Assembly: GCA_051362555.1 (NCBI GenBank) | Contig: CM120645.1 | Coordinates: 16,988,001 to 17,052,000, forward strand | Length of the DNA: 64,000 bases | Reading direction: 5' to 3' | Source: Lingula anatina | Lineage: Eukaryota; Animalia; Brachiopoda | In this document: positions 3,175 to 62,277 of the stretch, in pieces | Position numbering within the stretch: position 1 is the first letter of the stretch | Layout: every line of letters starts with the position of its first letter | Translations under genes and position numbers: made by a program | The notes under the pieces: generated by a model | The model's database searches: none | What the model saw: the letters and a program-made list of their open reading frames with translations, nothing else | Told to the model about the DNA's origin: nothing

Positions 3175-3502
3175 ATGGATTACAATTTATTAAGAGAACT
3201 ATCCCTCCTACTTGACCCCGTTGATCCCCTGGGGAACGACTGGCGAATGATGGCACACACTATGGGGTATTCTTACTCGGAAATAAGAAAACTTGAACGC
3301 GAAACGGAACCAACCAAGATGCTCGTGGCGTCTTACGCGGCAAAGACCGGGAAAACAGACACTGCTATTATGTGCGACGTCAAGAGTTTTGCTTTGGAAC
3401 TAGATCGGGCAGACGTTGTGGATTTGATAGAAAGTGCACTTGATTCGGAATATGTAAGCCAAAGACCAGCAGATGTAGCATGCGTCGTTCTACAAGAAAT
3501 AG
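3175..3502 (+). CDS. Exon 1: Death domain (MyD88/UNC5/NF-kB p105-like)
   Basis: [46 protein letters not shown]...[11 protein letters not shown] fits the death-fold pattern (DW..LA..MG....I..LE....PT..LL; R.DVV..I). Donor AG|GTAGGT at 3502/3503, phase 1. Confidence 0.85.
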
Positions 3503-6500
3503 GTAGGTTCGAAGGCTATACTAGTCAAAAATAGGTTGGTATGATGCACAACTTCAGTTACACTGTTACCTAACATGTAATGTCAAAATAAAAATAACAA
3601 CTTTATTCCAAAAAATATGTAGTTGAAGCCCGAATACTTCAAATCTCTATACATTGAGCAATCTCTGTAAATGTATGGATCACATAACAAAGAATGTCAG
3701 CTTTCCCCTGGTTTAAAATAATTCTTCAATATTAATTTTATCTCATATGACACGTTTCTAGTTCAACAAAGGTACCTTGCGTTCGTGTAAATGTCAGCCT
3801 CGACATAAAAAAATTACAACCCCCACCACTGTTTCTCTTGTGGAGATCTGTATAATTTAGTAAAAGTGTCTCGCAAATGTAAAGTATTGCTGCCGACTGC
3901 GATACTTAAAGGCCCAGTCACAAATCAGTTGCGATGCGTCGGGGATGGGTAAAACCCGGGAAATTTGAACAAACTCTTGAGACAGATCTCACGATTTTGC
4001 ACCCGTCGGAGGCGCTCTCCGGACGCCTGCGGGTTGTCGCAGATTTTTTAGACATCGCCACTCCCGTCGCGGTCCCCAACTTTGAACTTAAAATTTTAAG
4101 ATTGCTCGCAAGATTTTTCCCCCATTTTGGGCATCCCAGACACAATCTCCGATGACCTACGATGCCCTCCGATTAATCGGAGGCGTCCTCCGAATATATA
4201 TCCATATATAACCACATATACCCAGGGGGAAAAAATTACGAGAAAAGACGCTCGCAGATATCGTCTCCGATCGCCTCCGATGCAATCGGAGGCTAATCCC
4301 ATGATTTTTCGACAAAACCGGGTCAAAATCCTTGAAAAATCTCAGACAATGTGACTGCTCCACTTTTATTAGGATTATTGCTAGGATTGTTCAAGGATTC
4401 TTTATTTTCTACGACGACCCCCGGCCAAAACTAATCCCCGACAGATCGCCGACATTGTGACTGGGCCTTAAGTAAAGATAACGAGGACGTTGACTTAGGC
4501 TTAACATAGCTGCCAGCTGGAAAGCTTACACACGAAAGCTAAAAAGTTGGACTGACACCGACTAGACTGGTATATCTTTCATTGTTAAATGAACAGGAAA
4601 GTCAGTTTATGATAGTTTTATAAATGCATACCAATAGATTTTACAAGGTCATGACATAATTCATATCATATTTACTAAATCTTCTCGCTTGAAAAACGCT
4701 ACGACCTTGTAACTGCATGTATATGCCATGACCTTGACCTGCCTTTGAAAACGCTTGTAAAATTTTGGATATATATTACTTCGCAGAAATTGCTATTTCA
4801 GACATGTTCCTGTGATATCATATTGTGTTGCCAAGATATGTACTCCCCTAGCAAAAAAGATGTCACCCCTAGCGCAATGTTTAAACTAATACAGAAACGC
4901 ATGTCATTAACCAATGTTCTTAATTCAACTTCTAAACAGAATTTTTTCACAAATATTTACTGATTGTACAACCGATGAATTAGCTAACCACAGTAAAAAT
5001 AACAAAGCCACACCTTGGTATTTTATGCAGTATCCTCCGGATTGGAGGACGTGCCGTCTGTGCGTGGAGTCAAAAGGTTCTGTAACGTTTGTGCAGTGAT
5101 GGCGTTCCACACACGTTGCCAAGATAGCATGAGGTCATTTTTGTTCGCGGTGTTTTTCCCCTCATTTATCCATTTCCGAAGATATCCAACACATTCTTAA
5201 TGAGGCTCTGATCTAAGGATTGAGCTGGCCATTGGGGGTATGATGGATCTGAATCGCATATAACCTGCCTAATGTTGAATTGGCTGTAGGTAGAGTAGCA
5301 CTATCATGCTGAAACATGAATTGGTGGTCATGGTCCCCAAAGATATTCACGACAGAATTTTTTTAGTTTCTTGTAAGTACTTGGATGCAAGGGTCTGTGG
5401 TAAGGTTCCGTTGACCACTGCCTGCTCGCCTACAACATAGTAGCCATTACACCCCATGCTGTGATTTATGTGGGGTGCGTTTTGTCAAACAGAGGCAAAT
5501 AATTAGGAAGATACTCCTTACCAGCTGTTCTCCAAACCCTTACGCGCCCATATATTCTGACAACGCTTAACTTGCTTTCATCTGAGAACAGCATCATTGC
5601 CCAGTCATTGGCTTGTGTTCATGCCAGAGTTCAAGTATACCATCTGACTGGACGTAGACGGTTCATGGTAGTGATCACTGGTCTCCTAACAGAAACCCTG
5701 TCTAAAATATAAAGGAACAAAATCTTGCAAAGATAGTTCATGTTGAAAAGTAGGTCAAAGGTCAATTTGAAGGTCACAGTAAGATTGCCAGTATATGATT
5801 TTTTATTCAAGTTCAATAGTAACTATGGCCCTATCTCTGCCAGTTTTTGAAATATAAGGGACTGAAATGTTGCAAAGTTCAGTTCATAGTAAAAAGTGGC
5901 TCAAAGGTCAATTTCAAGGTCACAGTTAGATTGCAAGTATATGACTTCCTATTCAAATCCGTAGAAACTATAGGCAAAACTCTGCGAGTTTTGGAGATAT
6001 AAGGGATTAAAAATGTGCAAAGTTTAGTTCATGGTGAAAAATAGGTCAAAGGTCAATTTCAAGGTCATAGTAAGGTAGCCAGTATATGACTTCCTATTCA
6101 AGTACAATAGTAACTATGGGCATATCTCTGCTAATTTTAGATTATTTCACATTTTACTTTCACCAATGAATATTGCAACATTGTACTTTTTGATATAGCG
6201 CAACTCCTAAACCATATCGAAACAAAAAGGATCCCAACTTCAGTATTGCGCTTATCAAGTTCTATAAAATGCAAATAGCCATAGTTCTACAGCATTTATG
6301 GTTTGGAGAATTATGGAGAGTTTTCAGTTTTGCCATTAGATTTTCTAATGGCTGTGTCTCCTGTGAAAATGCACTGATTGACCCCAAACTCTTGAAAATG
6401 AAAGAAGTCCCTAATTGTAACCCCCCACTGTAATATGAGAGCTTAGGTCTGTGTAGTTTCTGAAAATTGGCAGAAACAAATATTTTTTTGCAAAAAATTC

Positions 6501-9500
6501 CCATTTTTAGAAAATTTTGGCCCATTTGACCTTGAAATAAAGGTCAAAGGTCAAATCCAAGGGCATATTTGGAATCTTCACATATGACTTTTGGTCAGAC
6601 TTCTATAGAATTTTTTCCCATAATTCCTTCAGTTTGGGAGATATTTGGCATTGAATTTTCAAAAATTTTGACAAGGGTGCATTTCAACGAATGCCACGCC
6701 CAGGCCATTGCACCATTTGAGACAAAAAAAAAAAAAAACAGGGGGTTCAAGTTGAGATTATATGTGACCTAAATCCAAGAGATGGGGACACGGGCCCTTG
6801 CGGTCTAGGAGGAGAAGCGGTAACGGTGACTTGTATCCCTCCTATGTCAACCGCTTGGGTAATAAATGTATCCTTCTTACTTAGAGCCGCGTATTGAAAA
6901 AAATAATTGAAGCATTAGACCCCATTCCCATACATTTTAGATCGATCTATCCCTGTGGGGAGTCTCACTAGATTAATGTCAGCGTGAACCCCCAGGGAGT
7001 TGGATCGATCTAAATATCTGGGAATGCACTCTTAGATTGAGTATTTCGATGATTATACTTTGTAGGTCAGTGTTCTGCTACTCACATCCTCGATTTACAC
7101 TATGTTCGGTTGCCTAGTTGTTATGTAATAGAACAATTAAAACTATGGGTACCCTTTTAGTAAAGTACACCTTGCTCAGCCAGCGTACATAATCCGGGGA
7201 GTAACTAAATATAACCTTGTCGCGCAAAGTGCAGTAAGGGTGACACCTTTTTTGGAAGGGGATATTTTATATCGCTTGGAAAACCTCAAGGAAAACCTTG
7301 TAATCTTTTATCAAAACGATATCTAATAGTGTGCACAAGAGGCCTCAAATCTGCAAGAAAACCGACGTTTTTGAACAGGCATTCCTTTATAGGCCCAATT
7401 CAGCCTTTTTTACGCAAAACCATTAGCATTATTTTTCATACCGCTGGCGATCGATCCTCGCCACATTGTCTTTGTGATTGGTAGCTCTCAGCGTGTGAAG
7501 CTAAATAATAAAAAAGGCCAACCCGGGTGAGAGAGGCGGGGTACCATTTTGTTTTGTTAATGAAGACTAGCCTCACGACCTGTCTTTGTAATATAACTTG
7601 CCTATTTTTTGCAGACACAATGAAAACGGAAGAGATGTGCCGACGTGCTATTCAAGAGTGCTGCAAATGCTTACGTCGATACCTTACAGAGGAAATAGTT
7701 CATGAAGATTCTAGTCTTCGGAAATTATTATCGATGAGAAAGATTCGTGCAAAATTCACAACTTTATTAGAAAATGATATGCTGACGCCGGCACAGTTTG
7801 CCTCATTGTACCCCGAGCACAAGGATGATTTAGACATTAAGCTTTTTGATTTTGACTTTTTATTTTTACTCATTCGGAATCTCAACCCTCCTACTAGCGT
7901 GAACTGGAGCTCGTGCCCAGGGCAAGACGAGACGGAGCCATTACATGATATTATAAGACTTCGGGAATTTTACAAGAAGGTGACAGAGATATCTCAAAGC
8001 ACTGAGAGCATGATGGCATTGGTAAAAGCAATGGAGCTTCCAATTAGAAGACTTTTTGGCGATCCGATATATATTCTTTCAGGAGAACGACAGTTTGCCC
8101 CAGAAACGACCTCTGTAAAGTCGGAAAATCCAAGAAGCAAGAAATATATCTTCACTGCTGTTCTGGCTGTAGTATTTACAACGTCAGCCGTTTCGTTTGT
8201 TGTTAGTTGGTTGTTAGTTAATCCGTGTGATCATCCAACTACAGAAGAAATTTCTGTCCATTTCAATGGTAGGTACCTTTGACCGAATACACTCCATAAA
8301 TCTTCCACACGCTACCCCTTGTATAACCGTAATATATGAAATGAAATTAGAATTATTTTGTTTTTTGTTTGGATAAACAAACACTTTTCTGTAAATTTGT
8401 TGTCAGTAATCTAATCTCTATAGAGAGACTAATGTCTAATCTAAACTCTAGAGACTAGAGACAAAACTGATTACAATTGAAAAATATGACACCCAAATAC
8501 GCTATGCCAATGCTATTACTTGTACCATTTACGAGCTAAAGTAACTAACTGAATGTCTTTTTTATATAAAGGCTCCCAAAGATACGTACATTACGTCAGT
8601 CGAAGACACTGGGGTGCAATGCTAGGCCGTGACACGCCTAACGAGTTCCTCACGCACCCCGTGAAAAATGTCATCATCATTACACGTAATCTGTACAGGT
8701 TTTGTAACACAAGCACCGAATGCTGCCAAAAAGTACAGTTATTGCAAAAAGAAGACATGTCGGAAAAATTCAGCAAGTATTTTTGTCAAATGATTTTACG
8801 CACCACGTTGATTGTGTTGTTAATGGTAACCTTTAATGGTGTGATTGTAGGAAAATAATGAAATGCAAATAGCTTTTGACTTTACTTGTCAATTTGGATT
8901 TTGGTTCTGTTCCATTTGGTTTTATTCTGGCGAAAAAAATACTAGACAAAAAAGAACACACTGTCTATAATTCTTAAGAAATTTATAGCAATCATTTGTC
9001 TCATTAAATGGTCGGCATTTATTTTGGATTTAGCCATGCCAGCACTGCCCCGACCTAACCAAATACGCGTTATTCTAAGGGGAAAAGAATGCACTGTATC
9101 TGGCAAATCATCTTGATGAATGCCACGCAAGAAGGTCGACAGAGTGATAAAAATACATTACCCTGCTTTGGGGTGTATGTGTTCGTCTTTTCTTACTTCC
9201 CTAGTCAGTGTGTACTTCCTAGAGATGAGAAGAGGGTTGGCGGGCTGGCGGTTTAAACAATAATCATCAAAGGCTGAATAAGGCGATTTAATTCTGATGT
9301 GTGTAGAGTGCAACGCGGGTAAATAAGGTGATTAGATATAGATAACTGTACTCAAATTGAACTCATATAAGTTAGCACACGTATACAATTAAAAATGTAC
9401 ACGAGGCAGTGCTTTCTTTTATTTCTCAAACAGATTACAATGACATCGCGTACAACTTTGTGGTCGGATATGATGGTGTTGTCTACGAAGGAACAGGATG

Positions 9501-10468
9501 GGACATACAAGGGGCTCACAGTTTAAGGTGAGACACTTTCGTGAACATATCAAAAGGAACGGACTTGTGCAAAACATATAATTAAGTGTAATTTCACTTA
9601 CCTCAACCAGATTTGTAATTCAAAATTTAGGAATTGGAAGTGTTAATGGCGAGCAGGTTTTTTGATCAGATTATTTTGAAATCATTATTATTCGGGAAAC
9701 TGTGGAAGACTGAGATGGCTTTTAAAGGCATACAGTGCGCGTTACACTTTTATAAAGTTTTGAAATTTCCAGTAAAATGTTAATCTTACAGTTTTATTCA
9801 GTAAAGATCAAAATCTCATTTTGTGCCTTCAGCGTTAGAGGGAGGAGTGTTAAGTAGTCTTTTGTGCCGTTTTTCATAAGTAGTTTTTGTCATAGAAAAT
9901 AAGCCGTTTGAGTAAAGCGTCATATTTTGTCTTCCTGGACATAATTTGGCATAATCTGTGTCTAGTACATTTACTCAGTGAAAATACTGTTTGATTATAT
10001 TGAAGATTGACAATTCCCAAATTTTTATCATTTTGCAATCACCATTTGAAAAAAAAACGAACCATTCATTGCCTCCAATCTGCTATTTGTTTAGAAATTA
10101 ATCGCATTTGCTCGTATTATGTCGATAAATCTACATCTAAATCTCGAATGTTACAAACCACCGCTGATTTTGTTTTGAACCTCTTTAATGAAGTCCGCAC
10201 TTTATGCTTTAGATGGAACGAAAAAAGCATAGGAGTTGCTTTTCTTGGGATGGAACAGCTCAAACCGTCTCCAATTGCACTTGAGGCAGCGCAGACTTTA
10301 CTCCATTACGGCGTACAGATTGGAAAGTTGGATAACAACTATTCTCTATATGCCCATTGCCAGGTGACAAACGCCGATAAAAGTCCCGGTGTTGAAGTCT
10401 TGCAGCATATGAGGGAATGGGATCCTCCTTTAGTAGGTCTAATAGTTATTAAAATAGCAGATATATAG
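3175..10468 (+). CDS. Spliced gene: Death domain - DZIP3-like HEPN - TM - PGRP (non-catalytic) receptor, ~510 aa, 5 coding exons
   Basis: Exons 3175-3502, 7615-8268, 8572-8772, 9434-9527 and 10213-10468 join in frame (intron phases 1,1,1,2; 1533 nt including stop). Introns are GT-AG except intron 3, which needs a GC donor. Motifs are given per exon below. Confidence 0.8.
3910..4468. mobile_element. PIF/Harbinger-like MITE in intron 1 of the PGRP gene
   Basis: TIR AGGCCCAGTCACAA...TTGTGACTGGGCCT flanked by TAA on both sides. Confidence 0.85.
5090..5690 (-). mobile_element. Decayed Tc1-like transposase relic
   Basis: The reverse strand near 5185-5235 reads QWPAQSLD...LIKNV, a degenerate WP..SPDLNPIEN.W. 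Boundaries are approximate. Confidence 0.5.
5720..6860. repeat. Interspersed repeat with ~140-bp internal subrepeats containing AGGTCAAAGGTCAATTTCAAGGTCA
   Basis: Three tandem degenerate units at ~5735-6140 plus a further AGGTCAAAGGTCA at 6541. Boundaries are approximate. Confidence 0.65.
6918..7031 (+). mobile_element. Harbinger/Tourist-like MITE family A, internally deleted copy
   Basis: GACCCCATTCCCA...TGGGAATGCACTC with TSD TTA. Shares sequence with the copies at 52800, 59519 and 61827. Confidence 0.85.
7615..8268 (+). CDS. Exon 2: DZIP3/hRUL138-like HEPN domain plus a single transmembrane helix
   Basis: [11 protein letters not shown]...[15 protein letters not shown]...W...[14 protein letters not shown] matches the HEPN_DZIP3 pattern (L...Q...L.P; FD..LL..L.RN; P...W...P...D.....DI.R.R). 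The hydrophobic stretch [25 protein letters not shown] (~8145-8219) is preceded by RSKK. Acceptor ttttttgcag at 7614, donor G|GTAGGT at 8269. Confidence 0.8.
8572..8772 (+). CDS. Exon 3: PGRP domain, N-terminal part
   Basis: YVSRRHWGA...[11 protein letters not shown]...[19 protein letters not shown] fits the PGRP pattern (IV.R..WGA; L..PV..VII; C....C...V..IQ..HM). The 3' boundary is inferred from phase (GC donor at 8773). Confidence 0.85.
9434..9527 (+). CDS. Exon 4: PGRP domain core (too short for the ORF track)
   Basis: Translates [30 protein letters not shown], the classic PGRP signature DI.YNF.VG.DG.VYEG.GW...GAH. Acceptor aaacag at 9433, donor AG|GTGAGA at 9528. Confidence 0.95.
10213..10468 (+). 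CDS. Exon 5: PGRP domain, C-terminal part to stop
   Basis: [12 protein letters not shown]...P...[30 protein letters not shown]...SPG...REW matches the PGRP C-terminal half. The phase-2 acceptor ctttag at 10212 joins exon 4. Confidence 0.92.
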
Positions 10469-22440: not shown

Positions 22441-24374
22441 GTGTACGTTTGGGGCGCACGTACACTGCATATGTATTTAAAGTAGTGCCCAAAAAGTTTG
22501 GGTGGAGAGTGTGTTAATTTGTTAAAACGTGTGGAAATACCCAGGCAGGGTTTCGACTTTTATAATGAAGACTCACCTATTGCCTTGGGTGTAATTTGTT
22601 ATCAGTTACGGTGCTCTCTAGATTTTATCGGCTGTCACCTACCTCTTTAATACCTGGTTAGCATTATTGCCAATTAGTGTCAAGGCTATATTTGTACTGC
22701 ACACAGCTGAGCTGGGCCAATTAAATCAATTACCTGTATGAAGTGTATTTGGAAGTTAGTGACTTAATTTTCGATTTGGTGTAGTGATAAGAGTAATTTT
22801 ATTTTGCAAGTAAATTCTACCTCAGGTGTAATTGACATATAACCTCATGAATTGCACTTTCCTCCGTAAAAATGTTAAAATTCTGCTCCTTTCAACTGTA
22901 ATGTTGTAAGTTACAATATGATTAAAAATCACTATTGTTATCTTTCTATTAATTTACATTTAGGAAATTGATCAGGCATTTCCCACCAAGCCACACTGAT
23001 TGGGTGCAAGTAAATTATCAAAAATAAATAAATAAATAAATAAATAAAATAAAATAAAAATAACGGAAGCTTTTGATGACAGGTACAAAAGGCACCTAGA
23101 TGACACACAAGGTAGAAGCAGCAAAAAATATTCCTGGATCTTTGTGACCAGCTGAGGAGACAGGATCTGAACATCAGGAGAGTGAAATCCAGTGTATGAA
23201 AGGAGTTATTTAATTGAAGCAACACTCAGAACTCAGCATTTCATGTTCACTTTTATTCATACAAAATGTGCACTTTTCCTATATGTTTAAGCAAATGGTT
23301 GCAGAAATGAAGACCAATTCATGAACTGAATTATTGATATTTTACATTGCACATCATAAATACACAAGTGTGAAAAATGCCTTGCTTCTGTGAATGACTG
23401 AATAATAAAAAAATCCTAACAATGTTGCTTATATGAATGGTTGCATTCATGGTGAATATTAAACTCTCTCAAACAACAGTCTTGTTACTAGTACATGTAC
23501 TTTCTAATGAACCAATATGAAGTACAAGAATGCTGAAATAATTTCTGACAGCTTCACGATGTAGAGATAAGTCATAACTGACAGCAATATTTCATGTCAT
23601 AAGACAATCCTGCATACATTCTCACTTGAGTCCACAAGGGTTTATCCTGATGATCAGCTCAAATTTCTCCTTATATCTATCCTTTATGAAAAAAGTTGCT
23701 TCTATGTAAGGTTAAACTTATGATTACACATTAAACTCTCTCAAACTATAACAGTTATTACCCAATGAACAAGAAAAATGAAGTACAAGATGACTGAACT
23801 ATCTTCTGACAACAAGATGTTGGATAAGTAGCATTTGGTAGGATTTCACGTTTTTAGACTGTCTTGAGTTCATATTGGTCGATCCCGCTAATCAGCTAAA
23901 TCTTCAGCTTGTATGTATCCTTATCCCTTTGGTGTACCTGATCGCGATATGAAGTTTATTTTATTTTATTTGGTTCACCTATATTACCGCTACTATTCCC
24001 CGTCGTTCATTCCCTCCAGCATGGCCGCGGGACTAGTGTTACGGAGCAAATATGACGTCACTGTAATGGGTTAATATTTAAACTGTTACAAAATTTGTTT
24101 ATTTCAAGTCAAATGGTACGATTCCAGTACTATAGTCTAAGCTCACTGAGCAACTTCTTAATTCAAGCTACACTGTACATTTACTGTATGATACTGTAGT
24201 GTATGATCTATGTACATGTACATGTATGAGCCTGAACCATTTGAAATTACTAGTAAAATGAGAAGAAAAAGGAGCTGTCACTTTGCTTTGAATGAATATT
24301 TTTTGTCATTTTAAATATTTTAGGGTGGTTAACAAGAGAGTGTCCATGTGAAGAAAAATACTAGTAGCTTGGTT

Positions 24375-62277
<37,903 letters not shown>

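Follow-up and report, generated by a model that had tools for sequence, protein, structure and literature searches.

In Drosophila, the cytoplasmic part of the peptidoglycan receptor PGRP-LC is a RHIM-bearing tail. We analyzed a 64,000-nucleotide (nt) stretch of the Lingula anatina genome (assembly GCA_051362555.1, contig CM120645.1, positions 16,988,001 to 17,052,000; hereafter the window, from whose first letter all positions are counted) that holds a predicted five-exon gene, the protein of which has two folded domains, Death and HEPN, in place of such a tail. Like PGRP-LC (LCx and LCa), the window protein is a predicted type II single-pass membrane protein with a C-terminal non-catalytic PGRP domain and Ser at the zinc-Cys site; unlike it, it has Thr for the diaminopimelic acid (DAP)-binding Arg, and the PGRP domains of its family form a group apart from the insect LC group. 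The MyD88/Toll-like receptor system, with its Myddosome, is comparable in that the death domain of the window protein is most MyD88-like among solved structures, but the window protein is without TIR domain or leucine-rich repeats and its death domain is joined straight to the sensor. With its sensor, its one membrane helix and a predicted HEPN fold in the cytoplasm, the window protein also recalls IRE1 and RNase L, whose KEN domain is described as a HEPN in passages of PMC3710099. The family differs from these two in having no kinase, the reverse orientation and a PGRP sensor, and in the window copy the ribonuclease (RNase) motif is lost. DZIP3-type HEPN NOD-like receptors of corals and bivalves (e.g., P0003) place a domain of the same HEPN family N-terminal to an immune sensor, but they are cytosolic NACHT proteins; passages of PMC9646362 state that the Rx4-6H motif is kept in 194 of 202 oyster proteins. 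Transmembrane (TM) PGRPs without RHIM are mentioned for brachiopods and molluscs in passages of PMC9835746, citing Gerdol et al. (2018).

Gene model and relatives

The locus is a real gene of a conserved HEPN-TM-PGRP receptor family, with a predicted five-exon model that is backed by relatives. The original prediction, made from the letters of the window, had spliced five exons in frame into a product of ~510 amino acids (aa), ordered Death, HEPN, TM helix and PGRP. We examined canonical donor and acceptor sites up to 12 nt from each of its junctions (3502/7615, 8268/8572, 8772/9434 and 9527/10213). Eight splice combinations gave more than 480 codons, and the predicted set itself gave one open frame of 510 codons with intron phases 1, 1, 1 and 2. 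Both the single product and its domain order hold, as the frame is matched end to end by a relative and the same fusion was annotated independently in Lingula and in Owenia. The features of the gene are as follows.

3175..3502 (+), exon 1: start codon and MyD88-like death domain, with the Pfam Death match at ~3196-3435
3503..7614 (+), intron 1: 4.1 kb, GT-AG, phase 1; repeats inside; no open reading frame (ORF) above 94 codons
7615..8268 (+), exon 2: DZIP3-type HEPN (~7626-8078), linker, basic RSKK, TM helix, start of the stalk
7971..7988 (+), site of the HEPN Rx4-6H motif: YKKVTE here, without the Arg and the His (alignment and motif scan)
8148..8219 (+), predicted single TM helix (signal-anchor): aa ~288-311, hydropathy 2.2, net charge +3 ahead of it and -3 past it
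8572..8772 (+), exon 3: opening third of the PGRP domain, lacking the conserved His; CC motif of the family, sequon NTS, GC donor at the end
9434..9527 (+), exon 4: PGRP core; Thr replaces the DAP-binding Arg (GTGW, cf. Drosophila PGRP-SA)
10213..10468 (+), exon 5: remainder of the PGRP domain (HCQV; SPG, with Ser in place of the zinc-ligand Cys), then a divergent tail and the stop codon

The window protein aligned over aa 1-496 with aa 1-506 of P0001, a protein from Lingula anatina that has the same architecture (36% identity, E 1e-101). Identity was highest in the death domain (52%, and P0001 likewise starts with MDY), followed by the PGRP domain (44%) and HEPN (27%). With exon 2 as query, a full HMMER scan reported 12 proteins, none more than 37% identical, and therefore the window gene itself seems absent from the searched protein library; a word-based search with the same exon, run on longer proteins (846 candidates), returned nothing. 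Three of the 12, P0001, P0002 and P0004, Lingula anatina and Owenia fusiformis models named uncharacterized, share the order Death, HEPN_DZIP3, Amidase_2. P0013, P0021, P0141 and the partial P0022 came from cluster look-ups and a further search, and altogether the Death-HEPN-TM-PGRP architecture was found in three Lingula and three full-length Owenia proteins. In a full-length model of P0001 (pLDDT 72.5, pTM 0.41) the domains are separate and their arrangement is not fixed; ESM Atlas gave no feature match for this protein, and the structure rows it returned were driven by PGRP only. The family gene models are listed below.

XP_013382779, XP_013399167, XP_013403046 and CAH1777915/19/26 (Lingula, Owenia): same architecture as the window protein
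FUN_039675, RPACG00000026840-44 and OFRAG00000006827 (siboglinids): HEPN and PGRP core, no Death listed

These Lingula, Owenia and siboglinid models are named uncharacterized or after one domain, and share a CC and CQV signature with the window protein. The window protein has the domain order of the family, carries this signature and falls into the single family group of the PGRP tree. Because Death-less members occur, HEPN and PGRP are, in the sequences at hand, the family core and Death is optional. By eye, Lamellibrachia FUN_039675 begins with HEPN; basic residues follow, then a hydrophobic helix and a PGRP domain that has the CC motif.

tblastn placed the five exons in order in the window and detected no second family copy within its 64 kb. 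In this model, intron 3 requires a GC donor with a weak exon side (TCA/GCAAGT, 5 of 9 consensus matches). Other donors nearby were rejected: a GT donor at 8776, 4 nt from the GC donor, causes a frameshift, and two GT donors that stay in frame, at 8784 and 8838, scored 143 and 139 bits versus 149 for the GC donor. Past the last Trp the C-terminus diverges from the family, and the terminal HW and Cys are lost. A possible extra donor lies directly past this last PGRP Trp, at 10432 (TTA/GTAGGT); since the family C-terminal Cys is absent here, a small last exon may have been overlooked at this point. In intron 1, a 145-bp unit that holds TCAAAGGTCAA words is repeated about three times at 5719-6141, with a further partial copy near 6544, probably a mobile or satellite element, and at ~3910-4469 there is a 560-bp stretch that by eye lies between inverted GGCCCAGTCAC ends and resembles a non-autonomous DNA transposon.

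Domains and membrane topology

Exon 1 matched Pfam Death with E 6.4e-11, exceeding the curated cut-off, and its best match in PDB was MyD88 (E 1.5e-5). When the family death-domain profile was compared with PDB, MyD88 reached 46 bits (E 4e-11), 20 bits ahead of the next match, p75NTR (26 bits). RIPK1 reached 15 bits (E 0.2), and neither an IMD chain nor a FADD chain was among the 24 PDB matches. Among these PDB chains, the domain thus appears to resemble that of MyD88 and not that of RIPK1. Run over 7991 scored candidates among longer proteins, a profile of five family death domains returned seven, namely the five family members, each at E 1e-37 or better, and two others, the next outsiders being at E 2e-13. 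The nearest outsiders, P0142 and P0143, are 221-aa proteins with two death domains each. A TIR domain was not matched by Pfam on any of the five exons.

Exon 2 matched Pfam HEPN_DZIP3 with E 1.8e-12 (47.7 bits versus a curated cut-off of 27). Its AlphaFold model (mean pLDDT 83) is an all-helical bundle, with HEPN proteins leading its structural neighbors at Z scores all below 8 (Csm6 7.0, with a root-mean-square deviation of 3.6 over 108 aligned residues; Roquin 6.4; AF_0298 6.1; sacsin 6.0), interspersed with unrelated helical bundles. Foldseek gave no match to this model at E 0.001, and ESM Atlas offered HEPN-like candidates below 0.9. A modeled complex of two HEPN copies scored 0.00 in both runs, in which the alignment was not used, and carries no weight either way. 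The Rx4-6H motif is absent from the window protein and from all three Lingula proteins, and present in the three full-length Owenia proteins; FUN_039675, which is without Death, retains it as RNMLFH, and the short-contig proteins P0005, P0139 and P0010, which resemble the HEPN-plus-helix part of family genes, keep RNxLFH. With both the Arg and the His of the motif absent, RNase activity was rejected for the window copy, whose HEPN domain is likely RNase-inactive; its last HEPN helix is also shortened. In the HEPN tree the family was weakly supported (76/73, 17 of 18 rows).

The PGRP domain is divided among three exons. Taken singly, exon 5 (E 2e-5) and exon 4 (E 0.07) matched Pfam Amidase_2 below the cut-off, and no Pfam entry matched exon 3, so that of the Pfam matches anticipated by the original prediction Death and HEPN_DZIP3 were obtained above cut-off and Amidase_2 was not, on single exons. 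PGRP chains in PDB were matched by exon 4 (E 1.2e-10, best PGRP-SA), exon 5 (E 3e-10, best PGRP-LCx, which is the best PDB match of P0001 too) and, weakly, exon 3 (E 0.04). Against a profile built from 129 PGRP domains outside the family, the joined domain scored 145 bits. Of the zinc ligands the first His is absent and Cys is replaced by Ser, while the second His and the catalytic Tyr are kept. Amidase function was rejected on these grounds, and the loss of zinc ligands agrees with a receptor-type, non-catalytic domain. All seven family members have Ser at the zinc-ligand Cys site, as in PGRP-LCx. As in PGRP-SA, Thr replaces the DAP-binding Arg in the window copy. A midpoint-rooted tree of 50 rows (the seven family domains and 43 of the 129 others) placed the seven in one group (99/97) outside a 26-row insect group, with no grouping with insect LC. 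The CC motif occurs in 7/7 family members and in 1/129 other PGRP domains, CQV in 7/7 and 15/129, respectively. The window copy and P0001 pair weakly, both here (91/37) and in the HEPN tree (88/77).

Hydropathy analysis of the spliced protein revealed one hydrophobic helix (Kyte-Doolittle 2.2), placed after RSKK, and no second one. Net charge ahead of the helix is positive in 7/7 full-length family members, and sequons number 19 per 1271 residues past the helix versus 7 per 2093 ahead of it, as counted in six members with P0013 excluded as a near-copy. From hydropathy and charge alone, the window protein has the PGRP-LC-type layout of a single helix, basic residues before it and a PGRP domain located C-terminally. 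Its topology is predicted to be type II, as had been proposed from the basic RSKK and the single helix, and the sequon enrichment past the helix agrees with this. The two sequons named in support, NTS373 and NYS468, do lie past the helix; a third on that side, NGS327, and one on the predicted cytoplasmic side, NWS206, had been overlooked.

Elsewhere in the window, a frame of 1269 open codons at 53932-57738 (-), of the long interspersed element (LINE) type, encodes endonuclease, reverse transcriptase and zinc-binding domains, and a short ORF upstream of it, 58435-58791 (-), has no Pfam match. The ORFs 24333-24995, 45181-45531, 49767-50207 and 60412-60798 (+) are protein-like, of low complexity and without Pfam match, and are possibly exons of neighboring genes.

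Proposed signaling by the window protein and its alternatives

Brought close together, death domains form helical oligomers, and peptidoglycan makes PGRP-LC cluster. We propose, with a probability of roughly one half, that the window protein is a type II receptor in which peptidoglycan would cluster the PGRP ectodomains and the MyD88-like death domains would seed an IRAK/MyD88 (Myddosome-type) complex, likely leading to NF-kB. The observations behind this proposal are the open frame of the spliced exons, the presence and order of four modules, the occurrence of the same fusion in other animals, and the loss of zinc ligands and of Rx4-6H. The outer, non-catalytic PGRP domain likely binds peptidoglycan, perhaps weakly or in an altered manner in the window copy, which may act as partner of a better-preserved paralogue. 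Polymeric peptidoglycan would then cluster the ectodomains, the catalytically dead HEPN may serve as a spacer or a pairing scaffold, and the gathered death domains would seed the IRAK/MyD88 assembly, and through it NF-kB, without TIR or RHIM. Such a sensor can likely switch on immune signaling by itself; an RNase output is not expected from the window copy. The original prediction had joined a death-fold module to the sensor and suggested either a FADD/caspase or an IRAK/Myddosome output. The fusion stands and, because the death domain appears MyD88-like, the Myddosome branch is favored over FADD/IMD, with FADD/caspase made less probable (MyD88 46 bits versus RIPK1 15).

Several results weigh against this proposal. 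The window PGRP domain scored lowest on the PGRP profile (145 bits versus 177-195 for its relatives) and is on the longest family branch (1.86), and it keeps 4 of 11 PGRP-LCx contact residues, where its relatives keep 5-9. No annotated MyD88 was reported at E 1e-5 among the seven matches of the profile search described above, and the MyD88 likeness is built on PDB chains that are mostly mammalian. Death-less members also make clear that a death-domain output is not indispensable to the receptor core.

The contacts were mapped with an LC isoform from Drosophila biarmipes in place of LCx and with the contact list in passages of PMC7177551. Judged by these residues, the peptidoglycan groove of the window copy is the most eroded in the family, and it is because of this erosion that the main rival is a co-receptor or brake. 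The protein would be a poor binder alone, which either pairs with a binding-competent paralogue in a PGRP-LCa-like manner or ties up death-domain partners in a PGRP-LF-like one. Such a role is consistent with the loss of the equivalents of H365, H388, D395 and R413, with small indels beside the groove, with the dead HEPN motif and with relatives that come in sets of paralogues (in Owenia, accessions on a single contig; in Riftia, four genes whose ids are adjacent). However, the equivalents of H473, Y399, N426 and T366 are kept, the first being the anchor residue of bumblebee PGRP-LC (PMC7177551), and tblastn found no second family copy in the 64-kb window; we hold this role to be possible, if doubtful.

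The output could also be IMD-like, with the death domain recruiting FADD and a caspase-8/Dredd homologue and so replacing the missing RHIM-IMD link. Passages of PMC9835746 state that FADD, Dredd and Relish exist in spiralians and that RHIM-bearing PGRPs were not found in molluscs or brachiopods, but in PDB the death domain lies far nearer MyD88 than RIPK1, and its 24 matches there included no FADD chain. Although such likeness does not fix the partners, we regard this wiring as unlikely. That the gene, though a real member of the family, is a decaying duplicate with no present function, newly broken or under relaxed selection, would agree with its long PGRP branch, the weak GC donor and the frame-shifting GT donor 4 nt from it, the lost terminal HW and Cys and the shortened HEPN helix; yet 510 codons are open across five exons, the death domain is 52% identical to that of its Lingula relative, and the CC and CQV motifs, the first so rare outside the family, are retained, which makes decay improbable. 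Death-less HEPN-PGRP genes exist, exon 2 has an in-frame Met close to its start and intron 1 spans 4.1 kb, as might be expected if a death-domain gene lay upstream of a separate HEPN-TM-PGRP gene. This is very improbable, however, as the death domain is of the type fused in Lingula and Owenia (by the profile scores above) and both phase and spacing match the fused relatives. We retain as our preferred reading the receptor that seeds a Myddosome-type complex.

The wider HEPN-PGRP family

In the supplement to Moggioli et al. (2023; PMC10192322), PF18738 is listed in at least 10 rows, all within PGRPs. Among the rows listed there, the three from Owenia all combine Death, HEPN and Amidase_2. In Riftia, four of the 10 listed PGRP-section rows have HEPN and Amidase_2 without Death, and these four genes are expressed at 23-51 in the crown versus at most 3.3 in other tissues. 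Lamellibrachia has at least two PF18738 rows, Oasisia none among the 14 listed, and the single PGRP row listed for Osedax frankpressi carries HEPN_DZIP3, with 35.0 in roots versus 1.7 in body, ~20-fold (sheet 11). No such row came up for Paraescarpia or Capitella, although the rows covered did not include the sheets of these two. In the main text of PMC10192322 the words PGRP, HEPN and death do not occur.

Members with a motif-intact HEPN as the only inner domain suggest a ligand-gated RNase that follows the logic of IRE1. Tentatively, and at less than even confidence, we suggest that the family, annelid-brachiopod and undescribed, consists of peptidoglycan-gated membrane ribonucleases, in which cell wall outside would cluster the receptor and so activate a HEPN RNase inside. 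In relatives that keep Rx4H, the clustering proposed above would turn on an RNase; some lineages would carry a MyD88-like Death as well, and some, as the window copy, would have kept Death while the nuclease died. This could be how gutless symbiotic worms read bacteria, given the sole PGRP listed for Osedax and its 20-fold higher level in roots.

A full-text literature search returned no description of the Death-HEPN-TM-PGRP architecture in titles, starts of abstracts or passages, and subscription journals and supplements may differ. Lingula immunity genes were reportedly surveyed by Gerdol et al. in 2018, and the odds are about even that this survey already noted the death domain of these PGRPs. 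The HEPN-TM-PGRP family is conserved yet apparently without published name, mechanism or comment, although automatic domain strings are public.

How non-arthropod protostomes signal the presence of peptidoglycan without RHIM-bearing PGRPs is described as an open question in passages of PMC9835746. A receptor with its own death domain would be a direct candidate answer, one that points to Toll-type over IMD-type wiring. In the wider family, a sensor of bacteria outside the cell would be coupled to an RNase domain of the HEPN type; we did not find this pairing described in the literature searched. With members in Osedax (roots) and Riftia (crown), the family may bear on how symbiotic worms perceive bacteria.

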